Shown in pieces: positions 6,601 to 37,959 of a stretch of 64,000 nucleotides of DNA. The notes below the pieces were generated by a model that saw nothing but the letters and a program-made list of their open reading frames with translations, made no database searches and was not told the DNA's origin. Made by a program: the position numbers and the translations under genes. The first letter of the stretch is position 1. Each line of letters opens with the position of its first letter. Source of the DNA: Amphiscolops sp. MND2022 (Eukaryota); contig OZ076409.1 of assembly GCA_964187785.1 (NCBI GenBank), positions 40,922,001 to 40,986,000 of the forward strand, written 5' to 3'.

Positions 6601-6867
6601 AACCGCACAAAATTTACTTTTGTGTTGTTACGCCTTAGTTTGTATTTTTTGCCTTCGCAGTGCTCTTGCTTTTGTCGTGCTTGTATTTTTTGTATTGGTT
6701 CTTGTTTTAGCTCTTATTCTTTTACGAGTGCTGTGCACTTTGTTGACTGTTTGTGTCTTGTTTCGTAGCTGTCTTGGGTTACTAGTTCCATGGTTGTATT
6801 GAGGTTCAGCGTTTTTTCGCGGATAAGGTTTCCGGTCTTTTTTTACGGTAATGCTGGTGATAACTTT

Positions 6868-7595
6868 TGTAACGGCAAGCTCTGGTACAGCAATATCAAC
6901 CGACATGTTTGGAAATTTTGTCAAAAATTCGTACAAATTTGACGTGGCACTCAAACATGCTCAAGACGAAGTACCTGCCAGAAAAAGCACCCCAGAAAAG
7001 CAGAAATCGCCGCTCGCGACGAACAGGCACCGGAGACGACAAAAAGACGTCCCCAACGCATACAGAACACGGTATTGTGTCTATCTCTAGGAGATATCCA
7101 TTACTACAGTAAAGGAAACCAGTGTTCCAGATGTTCGCCTGAGTATCCCTGCGGTATCCTGTGTGGCAACTAGCGCTAGCGCTGGGAAGCTGAGGTCAAT
7201 TTTCATCAAATGACTGTGAACTCTTGATCTCTTGTTGTATTTTTCGATGTGGTAAATTAATATGCTCGAGAGCTGTTGTTTAACATCTGTTTATCCAATT
7301 TGGGGATTTTATCAGATTCTCCAATATTACGGTTCAACCTTCATCGATTTTCAGCCCGATTTTTAAAGGCTAGTTGAGCAGTGGTCTTGAGTCTTGCAAG
7401 ATGCCTGTTACTTTTAGCAGTTACAGACTAGGACCAGGCCAGAGAGTATCCTACAAGACGGTTCCCCCACCTTGGGACTGGCTCCTTCGGAGGGAAAATG
7501 AGCTAGAGCCGCGGAGATCTAGGTCCCAGATTATATTCGCTGTTCTAGTTCCTCCACTCTACGTTGCGGTTCAAGCGCCAGCGCTTATCGTTACA
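6868..7595 (+). repeat. 5' LTR (728 bp), subfamily A
   Basis: TGTAACG...CGTTACA, near-identical to 24911-25638. Confidence 0.97.
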
Positions 7596-7610
7596 TAGAA
7601 ACTCATTTTT

Positions 7611-7628
7611 TGGCGACCACAAAGGGAT
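7611..7628 (+). promoter_or_regulatory. Primer binding site, tRNA-Arg-like
   Basis: TGGCGACCACAAAGGGAT resembles the complement of a metazoan tRNA-Arg 3' end (...TCCCTTCGTGGTCG-CCA, from recall). The same motif is at 39211-39227 (-) and ~62788. Confidence 0.8.
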
Positions 7629-8806
7629 CGTCTTGGGAAGCTTTCCCTAGCGGTTTTTAAAAGATCTGGCCCCCTGGTGATCAGCGCCAAGCCCGTTTTC
7701 GACTCTGGACAGGAGAGAGAGAAGCAGAGTTTTACCTCTTTTTAGTCGTATTACGTCTTACTGGAACTGGGAGAGGCGTTGAACCAGAGAAAATGCCGAA
7801 GAAAACGTGTTTTCAGGTGCGAAAATGGTATTTTTGGGCATTTTAGAAGGAAATCGCTCTTTATGTGTGATGTGTTGTGTACCCATCAGCGGGTACTTTT
7901 TTGCAGGTGCAGAGGACCGTAGCACGTGGCTACGGGTGTCTAACAGGTTTTTTGAGCTATTTTCAGCCATTTTATGCCATGCAAGAGGGTAACGGATGGA
8001 TGGTTGACCATACTCCAGCGAGGCGAAGGAGGGGACAAATCTCGTGTTGCCTACTTCCTATTCCCATTTCTCGTGGAGACGTCCTAGAGGCATGGTTTTT
8101 GGTGGACAGCAAGTGCAACGACAGACGGTGCTAATGGTCCCACCCGCGTGTTTCTGTCTGGTCTAGATGTGGAGAAATAACGTGGTGAAGATGCACCCCC
8201 TGTGACCAGATGCGTCGCTCAGATGGAGTATGGTTGGCGAAAATTTTGAGAATACACCTCTTTCGATGGAGAATCGTTGGTGCAGGTCAGTGACGTTCTA
8301 CTATAAATGTAACGACACCGTACGAAGTGCTTTTCTGCGAAAAGATAGCACTTGGAGAAAAAACCATCATTTTTGCGTTTTTTTGGTGTTTTTCTTGGTT
8401 TCGAGCACTAGTGCTCAAAGAAGCCAGGAAAGTTTAGTGGAAAGTTTTGAAAAAACAGCTGCAAGGCTCGAGAAAGCCGGCACGAGGCACGAAAGGTGAA
8501 GTTGAAGCCTTTGATTGTGATAAAAGTGCCAATTTGATGCCGAAAAATGTGGAAAAAGTGGAAATTTGGCCAAAAAGGCACCCAAAATGTGAACGTACAC
8601 GAGTATGGAAGTGCAAAACGACAGTGTACGGCACTGCCCCAAGTGTAGTTGACCCTCAGGATACTAATTGCCACTTTTGTAGCGGACTCAGGCAGCCTGG
8701 GGCTGATACAGTGCGAAAAACTTGTGATTTTTGGCATTTTCGAGCAGGGAAAGTGCATTAACCGAAAACACCCAGAGCGAAGCTTATTCGAAGAGAGCGG
8801 GCTCGA

Positions 8807-9073
8807 GCGCTCTCATTTTCAATTTTAGCAGCAAAAACGACGCATCGTGGTGAAAACCGCGTGCAGAAATTCCTTTTCAGTGTTGAGAAAAGTCGAAAAA
8901 CCTTGAATTTTGGCCAGTTTCAGGAGTACCAGAGTGCATCATTAAAACCTCTGGGGCACTCAGTGTTTTCGAGACCTGGGAGCCCGCGCGCTCTCATTTT
9001 CTGTTTTTATAATAAAAATAACGCGTGGTGGTGAAAACCGCGTGTAAAAACTCCCATTCAGTGCTGAGAAAAG
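8807..9073 (+). repeat. Diverged direct repeat (~181-bp period) in the 5' leader
   Basis: gcgctctcatttt...gtggtgaaaaccgcgtg...ttcagtg(t/c)tgagaaaag occurs at ~8807 and ~8988. Confidence 0.7.
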
Positions 9074-10289
9074 GGGAAAAACGCACTGAATTTGATCAAT
9101 TTTCCACAAAACCGCACTGTCTCTGAGCTAGGGTCGGGTCATCGATTCCTGAACCCTAGCCAAAAAGTGGTTGGATTTTCGTAACCACCACAAAAATTAA
9201 CGTTAGTGCCGAAAATTTGGTGAGCGTATCGGTCACCAAAGTCGAGAAAAGCTCTCTGACGTTTCGACCTCAGAGAAGCGTAAAAGGACCAAAAAAATCC
9301 AAAACTGCAGGACTGTCAGTGCCTTACACCTAGTGGGCACCACCAATTGAGGGTTCATCCCAGTGCTACGGATAGTGGGGCAACACGTTGGTCCCATTTT
9401 GCCTGCCGTATCACTTTCTGAGGTGATCCTCTTGGTCAATTTGTGAAAAAAGTCGTCAAAAACAGTGTTTTTTCGTGTACAACGTACATAGTGGGTCGAA
9501 ACCTCAAATAAGCGCTCGCGCTTCAATTCGACTATATCAAGGGCATTGTAGGTGCCCACCGGCATAGACTACCAAGTTTGGTGCCGATTTGTGTGATACT
9601 TGTCGAGAAAATAGGAAAAACGCGGCGCCCAAAAAAGTGCGCAAAAAGGCAGTTTTTTCTTAATTTTTCCAAGTAACCCGGGCACCTTGACCGACGGGTG
9701 GGGCTATATTGCAGCCCACCATCGTAATTTGTGCTAGTTCTTACGTTGCTGCAGAGAATTTGAGCTTGCTAGCTCTTTCCAGTGGACCGCAATCTTGAAA
9801 AGACGTGAAAAACAGTGTATTTCGATACATCGTGGTACCACACGTCTGTACCTAGGTGAAACTGTGTTGAAGGAGCGCGTGTTCATTTTCGTAAACCTAC
9901 TTGTACCTAAGATCTGCTGGTCAATTTTGGGCTTGATACAGCGCTTCTAGCGCACACACGAGCCTCTTGAGTGTTGTCGTGCGAATTTTGAAAAATCCTA
10001 AAATTCTTTGAAATTCTTCCTGTGAGTGACTGAAGACTTTCTGCCCCAAACCAGGTTGATTTTCTGGCCCAGTGCGCGTGTGAGAAAACGCTGTGCAAAT
10101 TTGAACAGCCTACGAGCTCTAGAACGTGTTTCGAAAAGTCTAGGACATTGAATAACATCAAATTTCTTAAGTGCTCACCGGGACGACCAAGGGATCAGCC
10201 TCGGATTGAAGACCCTGGTACGTTCGGCGACCCAATTTGAGTCTTCCGAGTAATCGTGAGCGGTAACTCGATCGCTATTAATAAGCGCG

Positions 10290-12941
10290 TTGGCCACCGA
10301 ACTGATGGCGGTGCCCCATACAGGTTCACAATCGTGGGTCACGATAGATGGTTCGCGTTTTTCAGACGACATGTCTGACGAAGTCACTATCGAACAACAG
10401 CGAAAAGAGGAATTGGCCGATATGGTTCCTCCCTCAGAGAACTCCAGTGTTTCCGAAAATTCGCGTCGGACCGAGCAGTGGGTCGACGAAACCTGCCGCG
10501 ATAGAGCCAATGAAGTGGAAGAGGGCTGGCCCAATTCGAATGCAACCGATGAATTGGTGGCTGAGGAAGGGTGCTCGCGCGCACCCCCGGCTGGAGAGAC
10601 ACAACTCGGCTCGCAGACCGACATGGAGCAGGACCTCACTTATGTGGGAGGTATGAGTTACGCGAGACAGCGAGGACTCGGGACCACTCGAGGACCTACC
10701 CGGGTCTGTGCCTACGGAAAGCACAAGAGGGTGCGACCACCCATACTGCAGGTAGGCGAACCACGTCAGGAGGCATCCCGTGTTAGGAGTATGGCAGGTT
10801 CATTGGCCTCATCGCAACGGTCTTCGGTATACAAGGCAGCGCTATTGGATGCCCAAGCCGAAACCCAACGGGCTCTAGCAGGTCTGGCCAGCACTCGTGC
10901 TCAGTGCAATGAGCAACATCTTGCCATCGTGGAAAATATTAAAGTGATGCAGACGACGATGCGTGAGGGCCTGCAAGTCAGCGATCAATTGCGTACCGCG
11001 CAGAACGTGCAAAATGCTCGAGTGGACACATTGGGTCACCGGATGGGAGAGATGAATGACATGTTGATGGCTCGCGAATTGCGCGTGGAAACGCAGATCA
11101 ACGACTTAAGCAATCAGATGCGCACAGTGCTCAATGCCATTGATGTCATGAGGCGTGAGAGGTCTCTCCCGCGGCAGCCCAGTGCAAGAGGAGGCGTGCG
11201 GAATGGAGGTCCAGTCCGTATCTCGGAGCCGACGTGCCCGAGCCAGGTAGTGAAATCGGAACTGCCAAGCGCGTTGAAGCCTAGCACTTCCAGGCCGGCA
11301 GTGCCTGCGCCCCGGAAAGATGAAGGAGTAGCCGGAAGTTTGGTGATAGCCACGCCTGAGGCAGAGCGCAAGCCTGCACGAGTGCAGATGAGGGGACATC
11401 ACGACTCAGCAGAGTCATCGATGCCTTCTGCAGCCCAGAGCACTACTTGAGATCAAGGCGTGGATCCGATGTCAACCATCTATCTTGATTCTACGGTTGA
11501 AGTCGACTTATCCAACACCAAGGCAACCCTAGGTTCTCAAACCGAGGGAGCAACGTTTGCAACTGCCCCTATTTCGATGTCAGGACCAGACTCCTTATAC
11601 TTGACCGCAGACTTGTCAGCCGATCATGGACTGCCCTCGGGCACTCCCTGCGCTAGCAGCACTCGCAAGAAGGACGAAATCGCTGACCTGTCGATACTAG
11701 CCACTCTTGGTAGTCATGACAGGACGCGCGAGGGGGAAGCTAAGGTCGAAGAAGGAGAAGCCATATCCCCTGAGCAGCTGAGATTCACGGCCGCCATATC
11801 AAAGGCGATGTCAAAAGAGTTAGCGCCTTTACTCGCCGGCAGAGACTTGGCTCAGGCGAGACCTAATGTATATCGCGGTTCCAAAGACGGATCCATTGAT
11901 GGGTGGATCCTTATTATGCAGAGATACCTGAAGAGAACGCAAACCAAGGTCTCAGCCGAGGACCAGGCCTGGAGCATCATTGGTCACCTTGAAGGTGAAG
12001 CTCGCAACTACATCATTAACAAAGCAGAATCCGAACGTGACACCCCCGAGAAGGTGTTTGAATTGTCATCCAGCCGCTTTGGCGCTGGAGGAAATCGTAT
12101 GCAAGTACGACAAGCTTTCCAGAGCCGCATTCAACATGAGAAAGAAGACTGGATGCAGTATTTAGACGCTCTAGAGGGTCTTAGAAGTCAAGGATTCCCG
12201 CAAGAGACAATCACTACCAAGCGCTATGAAATCCTCCAGCGCTTCATGGAAGGCGTACGAGACCCAGCGCTGAGGCGGGAACTTGCTATAGTATATGCCT
12301 CGGAAGTCTTCCTGACCGAACCACCTACGGTGGAATCCCTTCGCTTCACCACCCGCCAATTGCAGCGCAATCGCCCCAAACCCAACCAATTCACTCAACC
12401 CTATGACCCCAGACTAGCAATGAGGTCTAGACCTCAACCCTTCGCGCCGCTACCCCCCAACAAAATGGTGTTACCACAAGGAGTAATGCCTCCCCCACCT
12501 GCGAGCAATGCCCCACCAAATCAGGCAGCAGCGCAGTCTGCGGCACGCCTACCCGTTGGCGCATGCTTCAACTGCGGTCAAGCTGGGCATTTTGCCCGGG
12601 ACTGTCCCACCCGCGATCAGGCTCGCAAACCAGTGGCAGCTCCCGAGCCAGAAGGCGTGAAAGTCACTGCTGAAGATGTAACTGATGGCGTGTTGGAGAA
12701 TTATCCAGGCATTCATCAGTGTGCGCACTGTGGAGTCTATGACCATGTGGATGTCCCCTGTGGTGAGCATTCTCAAGCTCCAAGGCCTAATGATGAATTG
12801 GCCTACAATCGATGGGCTGAGGTGGAATCCGCTGGTGTGGCCGCCCACACTGTACCCCTGGAGGATGATCGCGTGTTAATGCTGCACCCAGCGGAGCCTC
12901 CAGCGTTTCATGCGGAACAAAGCAGATTCAAACGTGCTTAG
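10290..12941 (+). CDS. gag: Gag: acidic and coiled-coil N-terminus, capsid, CCHC knuckle; one in-frame TGA at 11448-11450
   Basis: ORFs 10290-11450 and 11460-12941 share a frame. Capsid-like IDGWILIMQRYL...LEGEARNY, knuckle CFNCGQAGHFARDC, second knuckle-like CAHCGVYDHVDVPC. Confidence 0.9.
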
Positions 12942-15900
12942 AGCCCACCACGTTCGATCCGCAAGGGAGAACGTTGATCTCGATTCATCTGATGCTGGCA
13001 GCCGAGCAGGTGCGTAGACCAACGCTAACCTTGGCGAAACTCTGGGTTGAGCTATCTGTCCTCTATAACCGGATGGAGTTGCCCCGCCCAAAGCAGTGGT
13101 ACGTCCCTGGAGAGTCGGAGACCCTGACTACATACTCGCCAGTACCGGTTTGTGCAACGATGGACGGCGTGGACGTGAAGTTCGAGGCCTGTGTGGTGGT
13201 AGATGTATTCCCACCCGGCTTATGCTTGGGACCTCAAGAGCTGAAATGCTATAATATCAACCACCAAGAACCGACCGGGGAAGCGCGGATAGATGAGCGT
13301 GCGTCGCTTGTTGTCTCTTTTGTGGTGCCCCATGCGGCACCTATCCCACTGCGAGGCTTGGTGGATACTGGTTCCGGGGTGTCCATACTAACCTTCTCCG
13401 CCTTTAACCGGGTAGCTGCACGGACCGGTGCGGTCCTGAAACCCTATCAAATTGATTTGTACGCTGCCAACGGGAAGACAATAACGACTTTCGGGTTGGC
13501 TGAGCAGGTACGCTTCCAGTTGGGAGGGTATGAACTCGAAACCAATTTCGTCGTGGTAGATGACACAATGGGCGTGGAGGACTTTCTGTTGGGTCGAAAC
13601 TTCCTCCGTTCCTACCAAGTCCTGGTAGATCTAACCTCCATGAAGATAGTGGTGCGAGCACCAGTGAAGCCCGTCTGGCATCATGCACACACCCAGGTAG
13701 GTGATGCTTCGCTAACTACTCCCATTGCTCTGGACAGTGACCTGGTCCTACAGCCTTTCGAGCGTACAGTGGCAAAGGCTAAACTTGTCACCAACGCGCT
13801 TGAACCATCAATTTTCCAGACCGTGGCGCTTAACGCCTCGTTGTCTGATCCCTCATTGCAAAATACCATCTTTTTAGAGGACAGCGTGGCCACTGTCAGT
13901 GAGACAGGAACATTGTATGTGAGTCTGGTAAACCTCACCAGAAACCAGCAGCGTGTACGATGTGGTGCCCACCTGGGCACGGTAGTGCCTGTGTCTTTAG
14001 TATACCAGGCTGTGCCCCAAAAGCTGGATGCTACTGCAGAAACTGACCACAAAACTGAAGCCGACAACAGTCGAGCAAATTTTGTTTATAAAGTGTACAG
14101 TGAAATGAATCTATCCACTGCTTCTGAGTTAACTTCTTCATCTGAATTTGAGTTTTTGTCTTCGACGGATCCAAGTGAAGCGGGGCTTTCGGAGCGCGAG
14201 ATTCGCAAGCGCACCGATCCGGACCTATTGGCCCCGATCCCTGGGCCCGATTCTCAATTGCAAGAAGTTAAAAAACTCTGGGGCGCTAGTCCTTGGACAA
14301 CATTTAACGAGTTTGATGACCTATTCATGAAGCGTAAGGCGGATATTGGCCGCTGTACCATTGGTAAACACACTATAGAGGTAGAGCCTGGGGCTGTACC
14401 GCACCGTGAAGGTGCTCGCAGAATGTCCCCCGAAAAGGCTGAACGAGCCAACCAGGAGGTTCGGAGCCTACGGGCCTTAGGGATGATACAACCTTCACTG
14501 TCCCCTTGGGCAAGTGGTATCGTAATGGTAAAAAAGAAAAGCGGGGAGTTGCGTTTTTGCTGTGACTTCCGACCGCTGAATGAAGTAACCATTAAGGATG
14601 CCTACCCCCTGCCCCGCATTGACGAAAGCCTGGCGCGACTGGGCAATGCAAAGATCTACACTAGCATAGATCTTGCCTGGGCTTTCTGGCAGATTCCGTT
14701 GCGAAAAGCGGACCGCCACAAGACAGCTTTTGCCTGTGAGTTGGGACTCTTCGAATGGTGAAGAATGCCATTCGGCTTGTGCAATGCATTAGCCACCTTC
14801 CAGCGAGCAATAGCGCGAGCGCTACAAAAAATAGTCAATCGCAAAGGCAGCATGGACATGGCATACATCGACGACATAGTTATAGCAACGGAAACTGTGG
14901 AAGATCACATGGCGCGTCTGCGCGAGGTCTTTGAATGCCTCCGCGAGGCTGGCTTCAAGATGCGCGTAGCCAAATGCGACTTCATGAAACCAGAAATCAA
15001 ATATCTGGGACGCGTAGTCTCCGCAGAAGACGTCAAACCGGACCCGAAGGCTGTTGCCAAAATGCGCGACTGGGACATCCCTCGCAACAAGACAGAGATG
15101 CAAAGTTTTTTGGGATTCGCTAATTATTATCGTGAATTTATCCCATGGCATGCCAAGCTGGTTGCGCCCCTCCACGCCGTTACTGGACTGAATGCCACGT
15201 TTGCATGGGGCCCTGACCAGCAAAAGGCCTTCAACGAAATCAAGAAAGCATTGATCGAGGCGACTGCGCTCGCGCAGCCTGATTCTGAAGAAGTGTTTGT
15301 GCTGGACACCGATGCCAGCGCCGTTGCCATTTCCGGCATCCTACACCAGTGGCAAGGAGCTCCAGGAGAGCGACGCCTACGACCGATCATACGATCATAT
15401 ACGGCAGCAAGAAATTGACCACCACCAAAGCCAAATATGGGGCACCCAAGCTGGAAATGTTTGCAGCCTACTACTTCATCCTGAATTACCACAGCTACCT
15501 TTGCCCCCAAAAGTTCACCCTGAGAGTCGACAATCAAGCCCTATCCTGGTTGAAAACCTACTCCACGGACCAAGCATTGATTGGACGTTGGATCATGACG
15601 CTGGACAGGTATCACTTTCGTGTGGAACACAGACCGCGAACTCAACACCGCAATGCTGATGGCTTGAGCAAACGAACCAACGATTATCGATGCCGAGAAC
15701 AGCAGCTTGCGCAGCTGCCAGCTACCGGAGAGCGTTGGAATTTCCTCTCGGCCGAGGAATTCGACAACCTCCCCGTAGCCCCCTGGTTCGACCTGCAAGG
15801 TCGAATAATTCCAAATCATCCTGACCTACCACTGCATCTGCAGAACTTGGAGCCTAAGGCTCCTGACCAAGCACTCCGTGTGCTTCGCCGTGTGCAACAA

Positions 15901-17500
15901 GCGAACAAGCGAGAACGACAGGCAAAGGCGCTAGCCGCACCTCTACCGCCCAAGCCTCCACCCGTGCTGCAAAAGCACGAGGATTTCTACCCGGACTATC
16001 CTGAAGACTGGATAGACGTCACCACTGAGGCGAGCGAGGATTACCTGCTGCCAACACATGCAGTAAATGTCCCCTCTCGCACCATCTATTCTGTGGCAGG
16101 AACGAGTAACGCCATGCTACAGAACTCTCCTGGTGGCGTGCGCGAGTCGATCATGGCCCTCAAGGACATTGACACCGAGCTCCATGAACACACTCATACC
16201 GTACATGGGATCAAGGATTTGGTCCTAGCCCAAAACCGCGATGTCCATGTGCTAGCACTGAAGAAGCTCGTGCAGTGTGAATTCCTAGATAACGATGTGT
16301 TTCCCGAGAACGTGCGTGAGTTCGCACGTAACTATTTTCGCCAGAAAAAGGACCTCTTGTTCATAAACAAGAATGACGTCCTTTGCGTGCAATACTCCCC
16401 CACCCAACGCCCATTGCACGAACGTCCGTGCATGATCATAATGCCTCAGCTGTACCAGCACGAAATTCTGTTCCGTGCGCACGACGCAATGGGACACCAA
16501 GGTATCTCAAAAGTGGTAGCTCGAATTCAAGAGCGCCACACTTGGCCCGGCATACGGCGCAGTGTCGGTCGATACGTCGGCCAGTGCCTCACCTGCCAAC
16601 AAGTACGTGACAAGCCTGGTGACGTACGATTTCAACTGAAAAACATTCAGAGTGGCTACTTCAACGAGTTGGTCCAGTATGACCACTTAAAAATCTGCCC
16701 CTCTGATAATAACAACACCGGCATTTTGGTCATCATCGACCATTTCTCTAAATTTGCAGAGGCAGTCCCTTGTAGTCACCACGACTATGACGCAGTGACC
16801 ACCTCACGATTGCTGCTGCAGAAATGGTTTGCCCGCCACGGCACCCCCACTCGCATGCAATCAGACAATGCTCCAAACCTTACTGCTGAAGTCTCTAATG
16901 AATTCCTAAAGGCAGCTCACGTCACTAAAGTGACCTCCACTGCCGGACATCCACGAACTCAAGGTTTGGTGGAACGGCAAAACCGAACCTTCTTAACCCT
17001 GTTGCGAGTCTTTTGCTCGCGCCGCATGCGCGACTGGGACCAATGCTTAGATGAAGTGATCGATCGGTGCCTATAATTCTACCAGGCACGCCACTACAGG
17101 CTTCTCGCCCTACATGTTAACAAGGGGTGTTGAGAAAGCAATCCCCCTCACCTTTTTGTACCCTGAATTTGCGGCCAAGTCCTTTGATACGCATGAAGCA
17201 TACGTGGATCATGTGTTGGCTCGCCAACAAGAAATTCACGACTTGGTCCGGCGCAATACGCACCAGGCTCAATTACGCCAAAAATTGAAATATGATCGTG
17301 CTATCCGCACACGAGCTTACCAGCCGGGAGAGCTCGTCTGGGTTTTTTGCCGCTACGTGCCGCAAAAAGGCTCCCCCAAGCTGATGCGCGCCTGGCGTGG
17401 CCCGCACAAAGTAGTACAAGTCTTTCAAGAAGGACGTGTCTACGTGTTGGACACAGGCCAAAAGGTTCATTTTGAGCGCCTGAAACCTCATCACAGTGGG
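12911..17500 (+). CDS. pol: Pol (protease, dUTPase-like spacer, RT, RNase H, integrase), disrupted
   Basis: LVDTGSG and LLGRNFL (protease); SPWASGIV, RFCCDFRPLN, MPFGL, YIDD (RT); LDTDAS, VDNQAL, NADGLS (RNase H); HDAMGH/CLTC, IIDHFSK, SDN, VERQN (integrase); WRGPHKV...VHFERLK (GPY/F). Lesions: TGA at 14759-14761, 8-bp duplication CGATCATA near 15385-15400, 4-bp GATC duplication near 17060. Confidence 0.95.
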
Positions 17501-19615
17501 CCCCTTGAGCTCGCCACCGCGCAAGCGGACAGCGGCGAAATAGTGGTACTCATGGACCCTGACCCTGAACGTTCTATCGATGTGGTTGACGACAATAAGT
17601 CCCAGCCTTCATATAAAACTGAACAACTACTTTCAGAAGTAAGCACCTTCGCGCAAGCACCATTGGATGGATACCCGGTTGCGCACAAAGTTGCGTGCTG
17701 GAGGTTCCCGCATGCACTACCAGCAGTTCGACTACTCGACCTCGGGCACTGACGACGAGTTATCCGAAATCATGTTACCGGTACCTCCTGATCCCGTTGA
17801 TGCTGATCGTAGGGAACCCGAAGTCCCCCAACCCCCTTCAGACCAATCAATATCACCTACCCATCGTCTACCTCAACTATTCTCAGACCATCACCACAAA
17901 TATCTTCTCCCGAAAAACAGCCCTCATTATTGGGAACATCGGCCCCACTACTGACAAATCCATCGCTGACGAGTTTCCTCAATAACTATCCCATTTGGCC
18001 GGCCGCTCCTTCCCTCCCTCTGAAGTCCGCCACCGAGGATGACGACGCTCAGTCCAATGTGCCTACCCTTCCCACGACATTGCCCGGAGCGGGGACCGCT
18101 CCTTCTCTCAAAAGGGGTAGGAGGAGACCACCCAAAACGCGAAAACTGCTGGTCAGAGCGAAGGCAAGAACGAGAAAGAAGGAAACAACAACAACAATGC
18201 CGTCGGAAACAGCAATACCGACCGAGGCTTCTGAGGTCCCCCGATACCAGCTGAGAAGCAGGCGGCAACCACGCTACAAATGCGGGACCTGTGGGCTGCG
18301 AGACTGTGTTTGCTTGCTAGCCGTCAATGAGAACCGGAGTGTTCCCACTGGAGCCCGGGGAGTTCCTCCGGAGCGGGGAGCAAATCTAGTACATCGCCTT
18401 ACGGTGAGAGCTGAGAAGACTTATTCCTCCCTGGAACGACACGGAGACCATCCCGTGGATACTATTCTGGAGAAGTTATCATCACCTGGAGTAGCGAAAG
18501 CTCCGTGTCCTCGATTCAAGGAGTGGACTAGCGACGGAAAAGGGTTAGAGTTTACCCTCGCAACGGTGATGCCCCCAGTACCCAGCAATATTGCGTTTGG
18601 ACCCTTCAACTTCGAGCGGGAACCTGTGCAAATGGTCCGATGCATCACCGCTGATCTTCTCTGTGACAAATACGGAATTCACGTGGATCCGGGCGGAGTA
18701 TACAGCCCAGCGCTGCACTGGTGGTTGCTGGTTACTGCTCCACGAGTGGAGGCAATAGTGGAACCACTGCACCTGCTGTCCTGCTTGGAAGGTCTGAGGA
18801 CCCTCACTACCGCGGACTTGATACTTTGCTTCCACGTTATAGACTGGTATCGTGGCAAAGTGAAATTCGCGTGGTGGTTGGAACTAATCATCACTTGTTT
18901 CACCAATTATCCTCGCATTAGATTGCTGGATGAGTGGACTCATACTTTTGAGATTCCACTTCCCTCAAAAGCCGCTTTGAGCACCCTAGACGCATGGGTC
19001 AGGGCGAGCAGTGATAATCGAGCGATGCCACGATCGGTGTGGCAAGACCTGGCTGCAATCCAGGGGCGTACGCCCCGCGTGTGCTTACCTGCCGACAATG
19101 GGCCGGGGAGAGAGATTATCTACCCGGGAATTCTGCATCCAGCCCCAACAGAGCACCTCTCACACGATGTGACTGATTTTCTTCAAGTAGAAGGTGATAT
19201 GGTGTTAGCGTGTCCCGCTGACCTAGAGACCAACTCAGCCGCCCTACGGTACGTGCTACGAGAATGCGGCAAGGAGAATGTGTTCTCCCTACGTCCCAAG
19301 GTGGGGGAGATTCTCACCATTCCCCCTGATATCAACCCAAACCCCAATCAGAGTATTCATTTACTGATAATCAGAGCAAACCAGCGTGCGCCGCTGCTTA
19401 CCGACGACTACCTGCGTTGTATGACGCACTAGATACAGCGCTTGATAGAGAAAGGATCCACGAGGGTCCACCTACCTATACTGGATCCAGAGCGACCCAC
19501 CCTCTCATTGGTAAACCTGTACCATACCCTAACGAATTTGCTGGAGGGCACTGGCATTCACGTGGTGCTGCATAACCGCGTGTATGTGTCCATTCTGAGC
19601 ATAGGGCCGGAGTAG
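17500..19615 (+). CDS. Post-integrase extension: Pro-rich/basic linker, Cys cluster, two putative TARG1/Poa1p-like macrodomains
   Basis: Overlapping ORFs 17114-17752, 17667-17954 and 17930-19432. After the TAG at 19430-19432 the frame stays open for 60 more codons to 19615. Macrodomain call is from a by-eye alignment to TARG1/OARD1. Confidence 0.7.
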
Positions 19616-19901: not shown

Positions 19902-22900
19902 ATGGCTTATTATCCCAACAACACGGTGCCTATTCCCACGACGGGACCTCACACCAATAGGTCTCAAGAATTGCCTGCGCGAGCGCAGAGGACTAATCAA
20001 GTCCAATATGTAGAAGAACGACTGAGGAACGGCCTCTCACCGTTAGCGGTAGCGGGCGTGGCCGCCCTGCTCACTCAACTAGACACGATGCAGACGCTGC
20101 CGGGTGTATCTGTGTCTCTGGTGACGGAAGTAGCCGGTTACCGTCGCACGCTAACCTGCCAAAACAATGCGTGGGATGGCCACGATTTGACGCATCAGTT
20201 CTTGGATGAACGCTCTACCACAATGCTCGGGCCCAGCCAGGGCACGAGATTCGAGCAAGAAGCCTCCCTGTGTATGGTGCCTGCCAGCGTTGCAACGATG
20301 CCACCTCCTCAGATGGTCGCATTGCCCCCACCAGCACCAAAACCAGTACCAATGACGCCAACTTATTCCGGTTCACCTGCCTTTGGGACCTCATATCGAG
20401 CGCCACACATGGTACTGCAAACCACTACTAGTGCACCAGTCTCTGATCGGGAGCCCTCGGGGTTCCGGTTGCCACCCATACCTAACCCAGAGCTGACTGG
20501 AAGGAGTACCAGCGAACAGGCCGTAATTGTGGCCCTGCAAGCAGTGGCCAACTATCCGAACTCCTCCGATTTTGTTTGTGCCGTAGAGCAGAGAATCCCT
20601 GGACTAGCCACTTATCTGCAAGCTGCTGTTCAGCCCTCGGGCTGTGACCCTCCTGCTCCCTTAGTCGAGACGGCATCTATGGATGTGGAAATTGCTGCCG
20701 GACCAAGCAACAGCGCAAGCGCTGCTACTGGCACACGAGAAGAAGCCGGGAGAAAGCGACTAACTGAAGAAACTGCCTCAGTCACCCCAGCTGGCTCAGT
20801 AACCGAGAGCCCGACTAGTCGTCCCCCTCCCGACAAACGCGCTGATGTACCTCGACCCCAGCTGAAAAGTGTAGTCATCCCTAGGCCTCCATACCGAGTG
20901 GGTCATCTAGGCCGAGGCGCGCTTCAGATGTCTCTAGCGGACGCAATCGAGCAGTATGGAGATCCGGATGCAGGCTCGGAAGTGAGCTCTGTGCCCTCGG
21001 GCACGAATCCAATAGATATGTCCCTGGAGATACCTGAGACGGTGGAGGAGGCCCGTCCCCCAGCCTTCCTCCCTCCATCTGATGACGTATCCGGTTCAGT
21101 AGTCACCAATGATAGCAAACGCATTTGGATGGCGGCTGAGCATCTCTACCCCAGTCAATGCGCTATAAAGAAAAGGACCCCTCCCACTGAGACGGAGCAA
21201 AAGGAAATTAATCGAACTACGATATCGGCGCAGGTCACGCGTTCGCTGCGCCCCCGGGACAGAGATATGTCGGAGCAGGCCTGGGAACAGCGTGCTCGAG
21301 AGCAGCTGCCTACGACAACTAACGATTACATGGCACCCCTGCAACATAACATCACCGAGCAATTCCCCGCACGGTATGTGTTGCGAGAAGGTGAGACATG
21401 GGAAGCGAACGCCCGCTACGCCCGCAACTTGAGATCTCTGAAACCACTATTGAAAGCAGCTCTGCAGCGCGCGCGCTACTGCATGGCGGTTGATTCTACC
21501 TGCCGGAGTGACCTGCCTATTGACAACTTGATGCCTGACGTGCTGGTACTGACTATGCCCCTGTCTCGCTTCGCTGAGATCGCTGAGATGGTTGGAGCCA
21601 TATACGATCCAAACTTAAGAGGATCACAGAAGGAACCACCCCCACAGCGCGTGATCTTTGCCAATCTTCTGGATCACATGGCTTGCGAAGGGTTGCTGCG
21701 TGACCTGGACGCTATAATGTCCGATGTCCGACGACCTGGAGACATTGCAGCCCTGGTAAATGAGGTGGTCGGTGCAATGGAACGTGCCGCAGGGATCCTT
21801 CGGGGTCGTCTGGGAGCGCTCGCGCTCTTTGTATCCCCACCAGGATTTATGTACTGGCCACGTAGTCTGCAGCAGTTTGTCTACATTCTGCTGGAGGTAT
21901 GCAAGGCGCGCAGAGTCGAATTCGCCATCTGTGCACCAAACTTGCGCGTGGACCGAGAGGACCTGCGCCCAGATACCTTATCGTATCCAGCCTTCTTTGC
22001 CGCCGTATCTAGAGCACTCGTGGCTATAGAACGCTCGGGAAACGCCCAGCTAACCATTGACGACGCTATCCTCTATGATCATGGAATGCGGATGGGCAGA
22101 ATGGCCTTTGACCTTGACGGCAACCGCATCGCCCGAGAGTCAAATGTGACCGAACGAGAGGCTGTTCGTCGGTACAATTGGCTAGTGCGAAAGGACAAAG
22201 AAATCCCAGTGCGTGCAGAGTTAGCCGAACTGACAAAACAAATCGGTGCATGGCCTGCAGCGCGCACCGTTGAGAGAACAATCCCTCAGATCCACTTCGC
22301 CTCAGGAATCGAGCCCGTGAAGCTGCATGTAGGACTGCAGTGCATCGTGGCGATTGAAGCAACAAATCTGAAGGCAGAGGTTGATGCCGCAGCTACCACT
22401 TACGCCTATTGGTACCAAACTAGGTTTGCCACCAGGACTCTAGCAGAAGTAGCTCGAGAGCTCAATTGTCCATTGGAAGCCTTCTGTACCAGTCTTGGTC
22501 TGGGATGGAACCTTGAAGTGCTAACTTCCGAGTTTTCGCTGACCCCTACGCAAACGGACAAGCTACTAGAAACAATTGGAGAGGCAACTGTCGGAGAAAT
22601 GCTAGCGCTCGCGCTAGCGATGGGCCCAACGAAGTTCGTAGCCGGACCACTAGCCCTATTAGTCGACATCGTGATTGCCTGCGACCTCACCGTGTTCTAC
22701 AGCTACTTGGTCCTGGCACAAGGACAACTACGCAGCCTGACCCGCTGGGGACATTTAATGACCTCCAAAGACCAACAAGATGATTCCGCCTAACTGGAGC
22801 GCATGCGTGCGTCGATCCAACACTGGCTATATTCCACCCTGGTGTTCGCCTCCGGTCTATTCGTGGGCGTGGACCAATCCCAACCACTACACAACTCAGA

Positions 22901-24209
22901 CCAGCAGATCCCACGGGAAACGGCAGGATTCCCCTTGCCGCAGCAGATTGCTGATCTAACCCTGGCTGAGGTAGAGGATTTCGTGGCATCCATGGCTCCT
23001 GTCTTGGCCCCCATCTTTGGCGCAGTGGGCGTGTGCCGATACCCCACAAAACTGTTAGCAACAGCAGTCCAAGTGCACATGGTCTCCTTTAGCACCTATC
23101 TGCGAGGCCGTCCCTCACTGGCATATCCAAGGGTAATACATGCCGTGCTGAGTGGTGAAGTGCCGCATGGGTACACGACCGTGAAATCCGAAAGAGAGTT
23201 GGAGGAGAACCTGATGGGTTTGTTGCGCGCGCGCACCAGGAAAGCATGTTCTCTGCCTCGAGAACATGGGCCTGTGAATTGGTACTCCGCACCTCTCAGT
23301 TTGGAAGGAGTCCCCTTCAGATTCCCCTGGAGTCAAGAGTTCATAAGAAAGGCGATTCGCGCCAGCACTAGTGCTGGTCCACCTGTGGACCCTTTGTACT
23401 GCTTTAAATGCATCGCCTTCCCGAACCGCTATTGGAAGGAGCCGTTAGGTTGGCCAAGGGCGAAACCCGTTGGACGCGCCCCGGAGATTTTCAACCGTCA
23501 AATCCAGCACTTGGAATCAGCCCAGATCCCAGGATGGATTGAAGGCGCTGCTCAGATCAGGCAAAGGAATCTCCAATCCCGCGTTACCCCATTCCCCAGG
23601 AAGTCGGCATGGAAGCCTACGGGAAAGATGACTATGTCTGGAGATATGTCCATCGTCCAGCATGATGAGATCAATTCCGTGTTGGGCTCGACAGAACGAG
23701 CAAGATGGGAAGAGTACTGTCTGGAGTTGGAGATTGCTAGCTTCCCTAAGTGGAAGAGAGCTTGCGAGCTCTGGAGCCAAACTGGGTGGATCTCACGCCG
23801 AGTCGCACTAGCAGTAGAAGGTAGAGCAGAAATAGCGAGACAACAGGCGTTCGCGCCTACCATGCTCGCACCAACGATGGCGATGTCTTTGGATCGGCCC
23901 ATCTCTCAACCGATCACCATTAACCTTCCAACCCACCACTTGGAGCCAGAACCATTTGGCCCGTCTTCGTCGCGAACTAGCCCTCAGTCCTTGCAGCAGC
24001 AGTCCGGAGAGCACGCCGCCGAGTTGACTCCCAATGCAGCACTAGTGCAGCCCATTGCCGAGTTGTCGCTCCCCGAAGATCTGTCGGACTCTGAAACGGT
24101 TGCCACAGAAGTCTCTCCCCGACGTCGAGCGTCAGTGTCGACTGATAACCCAGAACAGAACCCAGATGATGCCACTAAAGAGCAGACCCGACGCAGTTCG
24201 GCTCAATAA
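19902..24209 (+). CDS. Large accessory ORF3 (~1435 codons, one in-frame TAA at 22791-22793) with a putative SGNH/GDSL-like domain
   Basis: ORFs 19902-22793 and 22803-24209 are in one frame with only three sense codons between them, inside the LTRs at the env position. SGNH-like blocks at ~21470-22030. Confidence 0.8.
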
Positions 24210-24910: not shown

Positions 24911-25638
24911 TGTAACGGCAAGCTCTGGTACAGCAATATCAACCGACATGTTTGGAAATTTTGTCAAAAATTCGTTCAAATTTGACGTGGCACTCAAACA
25001 TGCGCAAGACGAAGTACCTGCCAGAAAAAGCACCCCAGAAAAGCAGAAATCGCCGCTCGCGACGAACAGGCACCGGAGACGACAAAAAGACGTCCCCAAC
25101 GCATACAGAACACGGTATTGTGTCTATCTCTAGGAGATATCCATTACTACAGTAAAGGAAACCAGTGTTCCAGATGTTCGCCTGAGTATCCCTGCGGTAT
25201 CCTGTGTGGCAACTAGCGCTAGCGCTGGGAAGCTGAGGTCAATTTTCATCAAATGACTCTGAACTCTTGATCTCTTGTTGTATTTTTCGATGTGGTAAAT
25301 TAATATGCTCGAGAGCTGTTGTTTAACATCTGTTTGTCCAATTTGGCGATTTTATCAGATTTTCCAATATTACGGTTCAACCTTCATCGATTTTCAGCCC
25401 GATTTTTAAAGGCTAGTTGAGCAGTGGTCTTGAGTCTTGCAAGATGCCTGTTACTTTTAGCAGTTACAGACTAGGACCAGGCCAGAGAGTATCCTACAAG
25501 ACGGTTCGCCCACCTTGGGACTGGCTCCTTCGGAGGGAAAATGAGCTAGAGCCGCGGAGATCTAGGTCCCAGATTATATTCGCTGTTCTAGTTCCTCCAC
25601 TCTACGTTGCGGTTCAAGCGCCAGCGCTTATCGTTACA
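24911..25638 (+). repeat. 3' LTR (728 bp), subfamily A
   Basis: Near-identical to 6868-7595. Confidence 0.97.
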
Positions 25639-25735
25639 TTTGATGTGAGTAGGTCTTGTTATATGATGTCTTTGAATTCGCAGTTTTGATCGAGGGATGC
25701 CAATTTTCGCCAGTGTTCTAGCGGCGTTTCGTTTT

Positions 25736-26147
25736 TTTTTACCCAGAAGAATTATCGACGACTGTGCAACGTTTTTCATTTTGGCATGTAGTAGCCTTTG
25801 AATTGTTGTTATTTGCCGCTCACATAAATGGGGGAGGAAAATCATGATCTGTGATGCGTTTTTTTTTACAAATTCTGCCAAAACTCCACTTTATCTCCAC
25901 TCCATGGAGTGAAGTGCACGTCCCTTAGTTACTTGACTATTTTTAGTAATTTAAGTTCACTAGCGATAATTACAACTGAGTTACATCAATTTTGATGGCT
26001 CAGTCAGGTTGTATGTCCTGGGTTCGAACCCGTGCTGGTTCTTGAATTTTTTGTTTCCCAGTCAGTAGGTTCGACCCTCTCCTTCCTCATACTTTTTTGC
26101 AAAAAGCGTGTCGCGGAAAATATCCCGGTGCTTAGCAGGCGTCTTGT
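25736..26147 (-). repeat. Dispersed non-autonomous repeat (HINE-like or tRNA-derived), copy 1
   Basis: Terminal (a)caagacgcc..ctaagcacc, internal aaaatcatgatctgtgatgc and GGTTCGA B-box-like motifs. Related copies at ~29280-29650 and ~31340-31752. Interrupts the old gag. Confidence 0.65.
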
Positions 26148-26510
26148 ATTAATCTTTTCGTGTTAATGGTGTCGGCATCTGTGTTAAAATCTCCTTTGGT
26201 GATGATTTCGGTTCCTGATGGTCCGGCTCCCCAAATGAAATTTTGTCTTGTTTCTGGTTCTTTCTTTGTCCATCTGGTGCTTGTTGGTTTTGCTTCCCGT
26301 GGATAAAGCCAGGTTTTATATCGATGTCGTAGATTCGTTTGATGTAGTGTCGTAGTCTTTCGGTCCATTCTTTTGAAGTGTATAGGTTTTTGCCGTCAAG
26401 TCCGGTGTTGAGGTGGGTAGTTGTATGCCGTTTGTGGTGGTTGTCTTTGTTTCTTCTTTGGTTAAAAATGGGTACATTTACACGGGTAAAAATAAATCTT
26501 GCTTTCTGTG
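26148..26510 (-). pseudogene. N-terminal gag remnant of the old Gypsy
   Basis: WTERLRHYIKRIYDIDIKP and NFIWGAGPS fragments downstream of the PBS. Continues as NETPLEHWRKL at 25639-25735 and at the left of 6868. Confidence 0.7.
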
Positions 26511-26513
26511 CCA

Positions 26514-26752
26514 TGTTGTAATTGAACACTTCACGGTTAAAACAGATCTATGGTTTAAAACTTAACTATACTGTCTTCTATCAGTCGTTACATAACAGTT
26601 CAATCGTAACAAAAGGTATCAAATCTAATAGCATCTAATTAACATAGATTGATAGCCAATTAGAGTTTGTTGGCCAACAGGCCAATGTCTTCTTGGCAGT
26701 ATCCGTATATTATTTTATTCGTTTGAAAGTCAGGTTTTCTGCGTATGCCACA
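26514..26752 (-). repeat. 5' LTR of the old Gypsy element
   Basis: Homologous to 1453-1708, adjacent TGGCACAG PBS on the minus strand, followed by CCGG. Confidence 0.85.
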
Positions 26753-29279
26753 CCGGGAACGTCCGAGAACAGTGAACTGGGAACCGGGAAATATTTGAAT
26801 TGAAGAAAGTTTTAGGGTTATAGGGTGGTACGTAAATTTTCAAAACCAAAACTCTTTGCCTGTTTTTATCCTGGCAAGACTAACACCGCTGTTATTTACC
26901 GATGCTAGACACTAATATAAGAAAGACAATATTCATCGAACTAATTTTGAGGTTTTTTGATATTGATTTTGACATTGAGTTTCAGGAAGTTTTATGAGGT
27001 TTCAGGAGTTTTCAGTGAGGAATTTTTTATTCAGTTTTCTGCCGATAATTTGTTACATCGAATACTGTTACCGTAGAAGCTGAATGCATTTAGTCAAGTG
27101 TAGTTACTGTTGTCTTGGGGTTAGGTTTCGTGGGGTTTAAACTTTTAATACCAATGTTCCATCTCGAAAAGCGCCCAAAGACTAATATGAAGCACACAAA
27201 ATTGGAAATATCTAGCAACTACTTGGGCAATTAATTTTAAGTGTGTTACTCTTTTTCAGTGTGCAAGAGAGTTACTTCAGAATTATTCGGTGACTTCATG
27301 TCTTTCATTGATTTTTTTGCTGAAATTCTCCGAGAACTTTCAATTTTTCAATATCAATTGATTTCAATGAAGTCATTTAATCTCGATGATGGATCTGAGT
27401 CTTAGTGGATTACTCAAGCTCTAAGTACCCTGCATAACCTATCATCATTCCATCATATTGACGAGTCATGCTCCGTTTCAAACAATAAGCATTGATGTTT
27501 TCGAAGTATAGATATATTTTTTGCAAAATGCATGAACCTTTTTTCCCACAAACCCCTGCGAAGCTGAATATTTTGTGAACAAATTATTCAGCGCCATTTC
27601 CTTCCCCCAAGACAAACCAATGAAATAACACAAAGAAAATCAAGCAAGATGTTGGTTGAACATTGTGGGTTTGTCATGTCGTTTTTTATAGGATGTTTAC
27701 TAAAACTGCAAGGTATTTCATGTTGCGGTGGTCTCGAATGGAGCAGACGGGAGTTTCAATTGGTCAGTATTTGAATTCCTTGCTTTTTTCTCTCTAGAAG
27801 GCAGCGGTCGATACCTCTTTTCCGCCGCGTCGCCAATTTGCGTCAATTGGTACAATGTTGTGAATTATTGTCTTTCAGCAGTTGTTTGTTTCCTCCATTC
27901 TTATACTACTGCTTAATGCGTTGGTGCTCTATTTATGGGATCATTGTAGCGAACCAATGTGAATGCCTTGGTAATGTGATAGTATACCATGCCGTACATT
28001 ATACGATAGTACTTCCGAATGTACCATGGTAATGAAGCAAAAGCAGTTTAAACAAAAATTACAAGACCTTTTTATGAAGAACCCAATCAGGTGAAAAACA
28101 GGCGACCATTAAGCAACCGCGGGTCCATTCAGTCCCACAAAATATCTCTTCTTGTTTCCTTTGTTTTATCTTCTGTGGTCATCAAAAAAGGAAAAAAATT
28201 AGCTGATTGTAGAAACAAGAGTTAATCAAAGCGATTCACAAATAGCTAGGCGCCAGTTATTTACAACTCGCCATAATTTCTGCTCGGAGTTTCTTCACTT
28301 TGGTTGTTTTCCTCAATGTTGTTTCTTATTTAACTTTTTTGCACTTTATTGAACCACGGAGTATGAGCTGCTGCGAGAACAATGGAACTGATGAAAATTT
28401 GGAAGTTAGTAGGATTGTTTTTCTTCTTTGTTCTGATTCACTTTTACTCAGAACAGAATTTCCCAATGATAGAGTACATTTCAGTGAAATGTGAAACATA
28501 TCAGTAAAAGAAAAATCTATACCTTTGAACTTCGTTCACGTTGAAAGAAATCCATTCAATGAAGCCCACCCTGAAATTTGATATAGAAAGGCGTATCAAA
28601 AGAGAATGCAACGCAGTCTCTTCCACACTCGCTACCTTGTTATACAAACAAAAATTTGTCTTTTTCTTACCGCTACATCCTTTGCAACACAATTTTTGTA
28701 GGTTTTTAAAAATATATTTGAACTCACAACTAGACGTTTTCAACAAGTACCTTGTTTATAGTCTGTTTTCAATTTGAAAGTGAAATCTGTTGAGAAAAGC
28801 ATTTCCATTCATTGTAAACTAGTATCTTAACCTGCATCGGAAATTAGCTTGGCCCGGTGTCAAATGTTTAGATTTAAAGAAAACGGAACGAAGGCAAGGA
28901 GGAATTAGTTACATTCATATCTGTAATTCTAGTCAGAGGAATATAAGTGCATCATTGAGCGTAGGAGAATCCATGAAAACTTGATTTTTGCGCTGATAAA
29001 ACCCTCGAGAACTTTTATGCTTCTGAAAAGAAACAATGATAATTGTTTTAAAACAAAAGGCGCAGCGGCACTGTGGTATTTTTTAAGTACTCTTGTAAGA
29101 TTCCTCCCTTTAGAAAAGAATTGGACACCTTTTAGACTGATGGTTTGGCAAAGAAATTAACGCAAAATTTTAACTGAAATAAAAGCTTCCACACATCTCA
29201 AAACCAAAGTACTTCATTCAAGACTTTGTTGAAGGTAGCGAAAAATCTTGGCAGCAAAGAAAAAAACTAAAAATCAACG

Positions 29280-29650
29280 ACAAGACGCCTCTAAGCACCG
29301 GGATATTTTCCGTGACACACTTATTGCAAAAATGCAAAAAAAAGTATGGCGAAGGAGAGGTTCGAACTCACGACCTACTGTCTGGGAAACAAAAAAAAAC
29401 AAGCACCAGCCCGGGGTCGAACCCAGGACCACCTACAACCTGACTGAGCCACCACAATTGAAGTAACTCAGTTATAACTATCGCTTGTAAACTAATAAAA
29501 TAGTCAAGTAACTAAAGAATAGTCAAGTAACTAAGTGACCTTCACTTCACTCCGTGGAATTTTGGCAGAATTTGTAAAAAAAAATTTGATCTGCATCACA
29601 GATCATGATTTTCCTCACCTATTTATGTGGGCGGAAAATAACAACTGATT
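29280..29650 (+). repeat. Dispersed non-autonomous repeat, copy 2
   Basis: Reverse complement of 25736-26147 (caagacgcctctaagcaccgggatattttcc...). Confidence 0.7.
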
Positions 29651-35300: not shown

Positions 35301-37959
35301 AGGACGTTCACATCTTGGTTGCTACCATCCAGTGATCCAGTGATACTGTTGCAACATGGTACTACAGGAATCTAAATGGAAGTCGTTGCCCAAAAACACG
35401 TTATTGCCCAAAAACATGAGTTTTTGCCAGCCTAGCAGGCTTCCTTGGATTCCACACCAACAACGGGTTCTTGCACTGGAAAAATATTAGCAACTTTAGA
35501 CACTTAGCCTTATATTCAAAACAATTTCAAACTTCTAATTTCGCACCAAAATTTCAAAATTCTTAGCACCTTATTGCATCTGCATAAAAAGCACTCATCA
35601 CAACAGGTTTGGCACTAGCCAGGGGCCCACCTGATAAGTTAGGTTTTATAAAATGCACGATAGCACTTGAAAAGCAAAAAATAAAAGTAACAGCTGTGGT
35701 CTTGCAGAGTTCATGGCCAACAGAAACTGCACAATAACTAGCACCAATGGTGAAACAGGCCTCAAAAAAGCAAAAATATCACCAAAAGTGAGGATCCATT
35801 CAGTCTATTGTGTTAGCAGTGTACGCTCAGATATAAGTACTGTCTAGGTAGTACAAGCACCAGTGTATATGCAAGAGATGGAAATAAACTGCTTTTCAAA
35901 AGGATGACATTGTCGCTAGCGATGACAGAGCAGAACCAATAAAAGTCAAAAATCAGGCATGATAGATCATGAAAACAGTCTTCGGCATTAAAAACAAGTT
36001 CCAGAGCAATTATTCGAGTTCTAAAAGCACGGCCGCAGGCCAAGCAGTTCTCAGAGCTTCGAAGCTCTAGATGTTTCATCATGCTTGGTGTTAATTTCTC
36101 TCGGGAGAGTACGGGTACTCCCCGGGCCAATCTCTGGTCCGGTGTTTTCACATCGACATGGTTCACGCAACTGTGGTACCGAGCACCAAGGTACACCTTA
36201 GGCATGAATCGAGCAACGAACACTGATTTTTTGAGAAGCTTGCTTGGCTACAGATGTTAGATTGTCTGAAAAGTCCATTTGTCACTCATGCTGCCCTGTG
36301 TTTCTGGAGGGCACAAGTAATAACAAAAATGTGATTAGAGACTATGGGTAGACTTTGGGGGTGAGTAGGAGGAGAGACACTGAGTTTGAAGTGGTTTCTT
36401 CCCTTACGATCGTAGTACGATCAGAAAAAGCGTTCTTTTTCAACTATGGTGGTCACTATGTACTTGTTGTTCTGTTTTGAGACGCACTGCGTTCAAAGTG
36501 TAAACCTCTAAAAGTGCCTATAAACGTGCTCCAGCACCCACTGGGTACAAAAAGCATCGCGCATGCATGTTCGCAATGGATAGATTGCACTTGGGTGACT
36601 TTGATAGCAGTCAGGAGGCGAATTTCCATTTTCGGTTTTTCACCTCTATGTCTCGTAGACCGGTTTTCTCAGAGACTCGTGATCTTAGGGTCAGCTTAGC
36701 ACTAATCAAAGTGATTCAACAAGACGCCCTGAGGGCGCCGGGTATGCTAATGGGGTCGCCTTGGCCCTCACTGACACGTACATTGACAAAAACTTTGTGA
36801 CTTTTTGGAAAAATGCCCAAAATCAACAATTTTTTCGTCAACGTGCACCTCCGGGGAAGGTGAAAATCACTTGTAGCGCTGCTAGCGACCTGAAAATTTC
36901 ACACCGTTTAATACACTGGCTGAATCGTGGGGAATAAACCTCCGATTGCGTCAAAATTGACCCTGTGGGTGTCACGGCCACTTAACAATGTTCACTGAAA
37001 ATTTGACTATGTCGTGAAATTGACAAAAAGAGGTCAAACTCGTCTTCTAGGCGTCCCAGCTACCTGAAATTTTGCATGCGAGCGTAACTTTTGCCCACGT
37101 AATAGGCAAAGACGGCGGCGAGGTGCCTGGATTAACATCCGGCGATCCGAGGTGACAAAACCTTGATGTACCAGAGGTACCACTTTTTCGGGTCAAAATT
37201 CACAAAAATGTCAATTTCTCAGCTTGGGCTAGAAGCCGGCTGCTCAAATTGCACAAATCGTCGGGATCTAGTGCTGTGCGTACGAAAATGCAAGAATTTT
37301 AGTGAGGGGGTTACCTGCGAGGTATTGCACTATGCTCAACTAAAATACCATTTTTTCGACATTTTCACAAGATTTTTGAGCAAAACTGCGGCTAAGATTT
37401 TTCCACGAGTACTAATGGTAGCGCCACCAAAATTACGCTACTAGCATAACCTTTTGCGCTCAACACGATGGTGCAATCTGTTTTTGGCTGCTCGTTTTAG
37501 GAGAGATTTCGACCTGTGCTGGAAGCACTACCACTGAGTTCCCAAAATGTCGCAAAATAATGCGTTTTCGTCTATTTCTCGGCAAACAGTGGTTGGAATC
37601 ACTCGCGGTTTTCTGCGTTTGCAACTTTATGCTAGGTAATGAAAGAAAATAGGCAAGCGAAACCTGGCAGGTTCCAAATAAGGTCTCTCAAAAACTTTTT
37701 CATGTTACACCTTTTACATTCTGGGAACAATGTGAAAAGTGAAAAATACGTATTTTCCCTAGCAACTTTTTATTTCTCGGTTCCCAGAAGTTCGGGATTG
37801 TTCTAAACGTAACCTAAAAAAATTTAATAACTTTTTTCACGGGACTGGAGTTGTTTCAATTATTAGTTTTGATGTTATAACTCTCAGGTCTATGGGGTCC
37901 TCTACTCAGGTCTATGTATAACAATAAAAAGTCAAGGGTTAAACTATAAATTTCTATTG

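Follow-up and report, generated by a model that had tools for sequence, protein, structure and literature searches.

TARG1 (OARD1 or C6orf130; PDB 4J5S, 2LGR), a macrodomain of the ALC1-like class, uses Lys84 and Asp125 for catalysis and DarG uses Lys80, while SCO6735 (5E3B) is active through Gln85 even though it has neither of the TARG1 catalytic residues (excerpts of PMC9411070 and PMC7050489). DarG (5M3I, 5M31), BT1257 (2AFC), Poa1p (6LFQ), SCO6735 and Tk.4 of phage T4 are stand-alone or antitoxin domains, several of which are proven hydrolases. Captured accessory domains are also already known in retroelement Pol proteins: the chromodomain of chromoviruses and the arthropod CopiaMBD are reader-type domains captured by the Pol of LTR retrotransposons, and a guiding role in integration has been proposed or shown for them. 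Poa1p-like macrodomains are annotated in databases for arthropod gypsy polyproteins. Chromodomains sit C-terminal to the integrase (PMC13524379, excerpt), and the targeting of chromoviruses uses them (PMC6673714, excerpt, citing Gao 2008). Macro-domain ORFs are found in fish epsilon-like endogenous retroviruses (PMC4977317, excerpt, citing Basta 2009), so that a macrodomain in an LTR retroelement has a precedent. Finally, Mac2 and Mac3 (SUD) of coronavirus nsp3, which are macro folds within the polyprotein of a genetic parasite, and macrodomains 2 and 3 of the macroPARPs are tandem, highly diverged and devoid of hydrolase residues; Mac2 and Mac3 of SARS-CoV-2 have neither catalytic residues nor activity, and their SARS-CoV counterparts are nucleic-acid binders (PMC10221186, excerpt).

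We analysed a 64,000-nt stretch of Amphiscolops sp. MND2022 DNA (here called the window, to which all coordinates refer) in which a retrotransposon Pol ends in two consecutive domains whose predicted structures match TARG1 best. With TARG1 they share 13-18% identity, and they differ from it in being arranged in tandem and joined to the Pol of a retroelement, in having apparently Arg or Ala/Ser at the position of Lys84, and in the replacement of the glycine loops. The next-best structural matches are DarG, BT1257 and Poa1p, with which SCO6735 and Tk.4 are grouped as the next-closest known systems; the element domains are fused, unlike these proteins, and the glycines that BT1257, Poa1p and the Tk.4 family keep in both loops are missing from them. 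Their fold is unrelated to those of the chromodomain and CopiaMBD, and ~440 residues separate them from the C-terminal region of the integrase. The fish retroviral macrodomains are described as additional ORFs, whereas here a gypsy element has a tandem integrase tail. Mac2/Mac3 and macroPARP macrodomains 2/3 are of another class and match much more weakly (Z 7-7.7), and the arrays to which they belong have retained activity in the first domain; neither element domain looks active. No report of a tandem pseudo-macrodomain integrase tail was found in a literature search on macrodomains and retroelements, with most subscription journals and Repbase outside its scope. The accessible parts of PMC13524379, PMC5408684, PMC9289625 and bioRxiv 2020.09.24.311225 held nothing relevant on 'macro', and neither did the accessible main text of bioRxiv 2021.11.30.470311, whose supplementary domain tables could list Macro-TE fusions.

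A Ty3/gypsy element with an extended Pol

The macro-fold region is carried by an 18.8-kb Ty3/gypsy LTR retrotransposon on the + strand. Its 5′ LTR (6868..7595, ~728 nt) has TG...CA ends with short inverted repeats and is paired with a 3′ LTR at 24911..25638, to which it is 99.0% identical over 729 columns. The assignment follows from the LTRs and from gag followed by the order PR-RT-RH-IN; the RT fragment scores about equally against Ty3 RT and gammaretroviral RT. The gag region (10260..12941, +), which has one stop inside and a CCHC zinc knuckle (Pfam zf-CCHC, E 3.7e-8), aligns to the N-terminus of the intact relative P0014. The pol core (12869..17752, +) lies in several frames and encodes protease, RT, RNase H and an integrase with H2C2, rve and C-terminal regions, with Pfam matches to gag-asp_proteas, RVT_1, RT_RNaseH, Integrase_H2C2 and rve. 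Membership in the chromoviruses was rejected, since no Chromo match was obtained with Pfam in the window frames or in full-length P0014, and the tail is predicted to fold into macro domains. The window copy is defective: the reading frame shifts near 15392, 17062, 17645 and 17890, and there are stop codons at 14759-14761 and 19430-19432 (TAG). Judging from the 99% identical LTRs, the element family was recently mobile, and it is abundant, one cluster of relatives having 1094 members. No 4-6-nt target-site duplication was found at the outer LTR flanks (6860-6867 and 25639-25645), which together with the 99% LTR identity may reflect recombination between copies. The 5′ leader (7596-10260) is ~2.6 kb long and includes a repeat of 181 nt. 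What is probably the primer-binding site starts ~15 nt past the 5′ LTR and presumably resembles the 3′ end of tRNA-Arg.

After the integrase, the Pol tail consists of a ~320-residue spacer, a Cys4 motif, a wrapped domain 1, a linker, domain 2 and the stop (all on the + strand). The spacer (17753..18280) is of low complexity and has a basic stretch at 18110-18136; GRP cores, which we take to be AT-hook-like, occur in the spacer of all four relatives examined and are missing from the window copy. It is followed by C-x2-C-x4-C-x-C, a putative zinc site (18281..18313; pLDDT <50) whose four Cys are invariant in 5/9 representatives, namely the ones that reach this motif. A folded N-terminal part (18386..18577, block pLDDT 76-93) packs with domain 1, a predicted macro fold of the ALC1/TARG1 class (18578..18934) that is shortened by deletion of the loop-1 region, and in the model this unit is closed by a strand and two helices (18935..19066) with conserved Trp, Arg and Asp. 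Domain 2, assigned to the same fold and class by prediction (19154..19579), is interrupted by TAG 19430-19432, and the read-through ORF that contains it terminates at TAG 19613-19615. The earlier note had proposed two macrodomains by eye from eleven short motifs, and all of these do lie in a single + frame, the ORF 17813-19432 read past the TAG, at the places it had given; they span 18590-18937 in domain 1 and 19160-19576 in domain 2.

The same note had asked for an in-frame fusion to integrase in intact copies, and this was seen in relatives. Among 359 fetched proteins, most of which came from length-limited searches and are too short to include integrase, some part of the integrase shares one frame with domain 1 or 2 in 16, the integrase core is followed in one frame by both domains in seven, and four run in one frame from RT through domain 2. 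P0227, from a subfamily ~40% identical, also starts with integrase C-terminal sequence. The chain ends at most 24 residues past the domain 2 match in 115 of the 119 two-domain proteins. P0026, with 96% identity to the window from 17888 to 19612, has a single frame across the TAG, so that TAG 19430 is a lesion of the window copy. The comparison with the chromodomain site of chromoviruses held only in part: the tail is indeed C-terminal to integrase, but it does not adjoin it, since in P0004 ~440 residues, made up of the low-complexity spacer, the Cys4 motif and the folded N-terminal part, separate the integrase C-terminal region from domain 1.

Downstream of the tail, in the env position, lies an extra ORF of ~1435 aa (19902..24209, +) with one internal stop, 95% identical to the intact P0360. 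It has 81 relatives down to 40% identity and clusters of 491, 581 and 657 members, and it gave no match in Pfam, PDB or ESM Atlas. Its hydropathy peaks reach 1.7-2.3. By eye only, its middle part looks SGNH-hydrolase-like; GDSL/SGNH ORF3s are present in bdelloid LTR elements (PMC5408684, excerpt). The rest of the window holds a single ORF of at least 150 aa, and its GC content is mostly 33-44%. A second family member (62028-64000), seen as LTR and leader, is 84% identical over 1935 nt and continues past the window end. Two direct repeats of 730 nt that lie 4.7 kb apart at 34532-39974 are 98.8% identical and have TG...CA-type ends like those of the main LTRs, with no ORF of at least 150 aa between them; from its sequence this is probably a non-autonomous LTR element, and related pieces lie at 2121-2501 and 33975-34254. 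Just past the 3′ LTR (25805-29645) there is an element with ~350-nt terminal inverted repeats that are 77% identical, and a perfect 73-nt palindrome with no spacer (51794-51939) may be either a foldback or an artefact of the assembly.

Fold and kinship of the two tail domains

Domain 1 was modelled from the window itself, its unit being folded alone by AlphaFold (pLDDT 90.6, pTM 0.83). Domain 2 was modelled only from the intact relative P0004, and not from the interrupted window copy, by folding the last 464 residues with a 125-row alignment (pLDDT 80.9, pTM 0.62); domain 2 of P0004 is 47% identical to that of P0026, the near twin of the window copy. With the P0004 model of domain 2, TARG1 (C6orf130) ranked first in Foldseek (E 1.7e-8) and was aligned by VIA-align at Z 16.4 (rmsd 4.2, 142 aligned), followed by DarG (Z 15.2, rmsd 2.9), BT1257 (13.7) and Poa1p (12.7). 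With domain 1, TARG1 was again first both in Foldseek (E 9.9e-5) and in VIA-align (2lgr, Z 12.2, rmsd 2.9, 117 aligned), and the next-best Z values were 11.4 for DarG, 11.8 for BT1257 and 10.6 for Poa1p. The predicted structures therefore confirmed what had been proposed from the letters, that both segments are macro folds of the ALC1/TARG1-like class, closest to TARG1/DarG; the structural match, whose absence had been named as a refutation, was obtained for both, in the case of domain 2 from P0004. The N-domains of leucine aminopeptidases have the same fold with lower scores (best Z 11.1 for domain 2 and 8.9 for domain 1), so that the fold by itself is no proof of ADP-ribose binding. In the model of the domain-1 unit, segments 18386-18577 and 18935-19066 fold confidently together with domain 1 (pTM 0.83 for the whole), and this macro fold looks as if it were inserted into another small domain.

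Sequence searches gave no macro signal in either segment, whether with Pfam (the window and all 125 alignment members) or with NCBIfam and PHROGs, and neither segment had a match in the PDB by phmmer or hmmsearch. ESM Atlas gave no macro signal either (its best score, 0.79, is no more than a lead), and phage sequences yielded nothing in a tblastn search with domain 2. Relatives of the region numbered 207 at E ≤0.001 in the representative search and 430 in the profile search; all 120 matches listed from the latter and all cluster members listed come from ENA, and neither the JGI metagenomes nor IMG/VR yielded any relatives.

When the two domains were compared with each other by HHalign, the score was 43.6 (E 4.5e-7), the maximum of 30 column shuffles being 19.8. 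Against the family of phage Tk.4 (Poa1p-like), the sole outside family compared (a profile of 15 representatives from 37 sequences), domain 2 scored a weak 25.3 (E 0.002; maximum of 30 shuffles 16.8) and domain 1 scored 14.0, below its shuffle maximum of 15.9. The domains are thus closer to each other than to the Tk.4 family, which points to an internal duplication, and a derived Asp-x-x-Arg in loop 2 is common to both. With one outside family compared, duplication after capture would be the simplest account, and the independent capture of two domains is disfavoured by these profiles.

The pocket and its conservation

Pocket residues were counted among representatives below 80% identity (42 for domain 2 and 43 for domain 1, n varying per column). 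The register comes from a low-probability profile alignment combined with predicted secondary structure, and not from a residue-level alignment to TARG1: the global alignment of domain 2 with Tk.4 has a probability of 0.9% (E 0.027), and domain 1 was mapped only via domain 2. In domain 2 the Gly positions of loop 1 are occupied by Asn/Ser/Tyr and Ala (38/40), the position of the catalytic Lys is Arg in 36/41 and Lys in 1, this Arg being equated with TARG1 Lys84 from its strand position, and loop 2 has Asp (31/33), Pro (25/32), Glu (27/32) and Arg (30/32). The adenine-site Asp after the first strand, which we take to be a feature of ADP-ribose-binding macrodomains, is kept in 32/36. In domain 1 the commonest residues at the adenine position do not include Asp, the lysine position is Ala/Ser in 36/39, loop 1 is deleted relative to domain 2, and loop 2 again has Asp (37/42) and Arg (33/41). 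In the Tk.4 controls (n=15) the loop-1 Gly were present in 15/15 and 15/15 and the loop-2 Gly in 13/15 and 12/15; in Poa1p the first Gly position of loop 2 is Asn.

In this inferred register neither domain has the catalytic Lys or the glycine-rich loops of TARG1/DarG-type hydrolases, in agreement with the suggestion that the domains are pseudo-enzymes or binding modules. The loss of the lysine alone is no proof of inactivity, because SCO6735 is active without the TARG1 catalytic residues; the loss of both glycine loops is the stronger sign. An active counter-defence hydrolase with divergent chemistry, which would strip host ADP-ribose from element proteins, RNA or cDNA, is made conceivable by the variation of catalytic residues within the ALC1-like class (PMC7050489 and PMC9411070, excerpts), by viral macrodomains that counteract host ADP-ribosylation (PMC7232374, excerpt) and by the active m6A demethylase that orchid gypsy elements carry (PMC9289625, excerpt). 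However, the Tk.4 family, BT1257 and Poa1p have glycines of both loops and neither element domain does, so that we regard such an enzyme as distinctly improbable; the replaced pocket speaks against the counter-defence idea of the earlier note in its ADP-ribose-eraser form.

The conserved Asp and two Arg of domain 2 resemble what might be a ligand site. Domain 2 could then be a non-catalytic reader that binds ADP-ribose or poly(ADP-ribose) via the rebuilt pocket, and either steers the integrase to ADP-ribosylated chromatin or keeps host readers away from modified proteins or RNA of the element. The retained adenine-site Asp (32/36), the Arg that occupies the lysine position (36/41) and the one of loop 2 (30/32), both of which could touch phosphates, the ADP-ribose-handling enzymes at the top of the structural matches and the tandem macrodomains of macroPARPs (PMC10221186, excerpt) all speak for this. 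Yet neither glycine loop is preserved, the loop that should hold the diphosphate has Pro and two acidic residues instead, and the adenine-site Asp could be a structural helix cap; we regard a reader as doubtful.

Between P0004 and P0026 the identity is 92% in RT, 87% in the integrase core, 62% in domain 1, 47% in domain 2 and 48% in the aligned spacer, so that in this pair the aligned spacer is at least as well conserved as domain 2. In a distant subfamily both domains align at full length (116/116 and 143/143 positions) with 41-47% identity. By these comparisons the macro-fold domains are retained yet fast-changing, much faster than RT or integrase. Such rapid divergence, and the many fragmentary copies among those fetched, would fit a vestige of an old capture that decays neutrally, but the domains are full length across subfamilies ~40% identical and their derived residues are near-invariant, which makes neutral decay highly improbable.

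Role of the tail

The reading that we prefer, with a probability of roughly one half, is that the two domains are catalytically dead binding modules that help to tether the integrase complex, rather than erasers of ADP-ribose. It rests on the tail position, on the DNA-binding-like motifs next to the domains, and on the precedents of the chromodomain and of coronavirus Mac2/Mac3. In P0004, domain 1 has 12 K+R and 13 D+E and domain 2 has 10 K+R and 17 D+E; neither domain is basic, which makes bare DNA a less likely partner than a protein or chromatin. The tail might instead be cleaved off, or lie inside the virus-like particle, and serve as a particle or replication scaffold for the element RNA or the extra ORF product, with no role in target choice. 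The long spacer could harbour a protease site, the large extra ORF is likewise conserved down to 40% identity, and coronavirus pseudo-macrodomains bind nucleic acids (PMC10221186, excerpt). The adjacent cores, if our AT-hook-like label is right, suggest a role on the DNA side instead, and a scaffold appears improbable to us.

If the two domains are dead tethering modules, an ancestral element would have captured one TARG1-like macrodomain, whose diphosphate loop would have been rebuilt into the Asp-x-x-Arg motif before the domain was duplicated, and domain 1 would afterwards have lost loop 1 and become wrapped in additional structure. The long flexible spacer would keep the macro module attached to the mature integrase, and the module, together with the Cys4 and AT-hook-like motifs, might bind chromatin, nucleic acid or a host protein, so that binding by the tail would bias the site or the efficiency of cDNA integration. 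That the integrase uses an ADP-ribose reader with the rebuilt Asp/Arg pocket to bring its integration complex to DNA breaks, where the chromatin is ADP-ribosylated, seems to us rather unlikely. To our knowledge, no mobile element is known to read a code of ADP-ribosylation for targeting; if the reader interpretation were true, it would mean retrotransposon targeting by ADP-ribosylation.

Chromodomains at the end of the integrase revealed how retroelements choose their targets, and this element family adds a new end domain that is invisible to Pfam. It also offers a natural example of a TARG1-class fold, as predicted, with a re-engineered pocket. The domains are small, confidently folded in prediction and directly assayable, so that a link between ADP-ribosylation and retrotransposons becomes testable.
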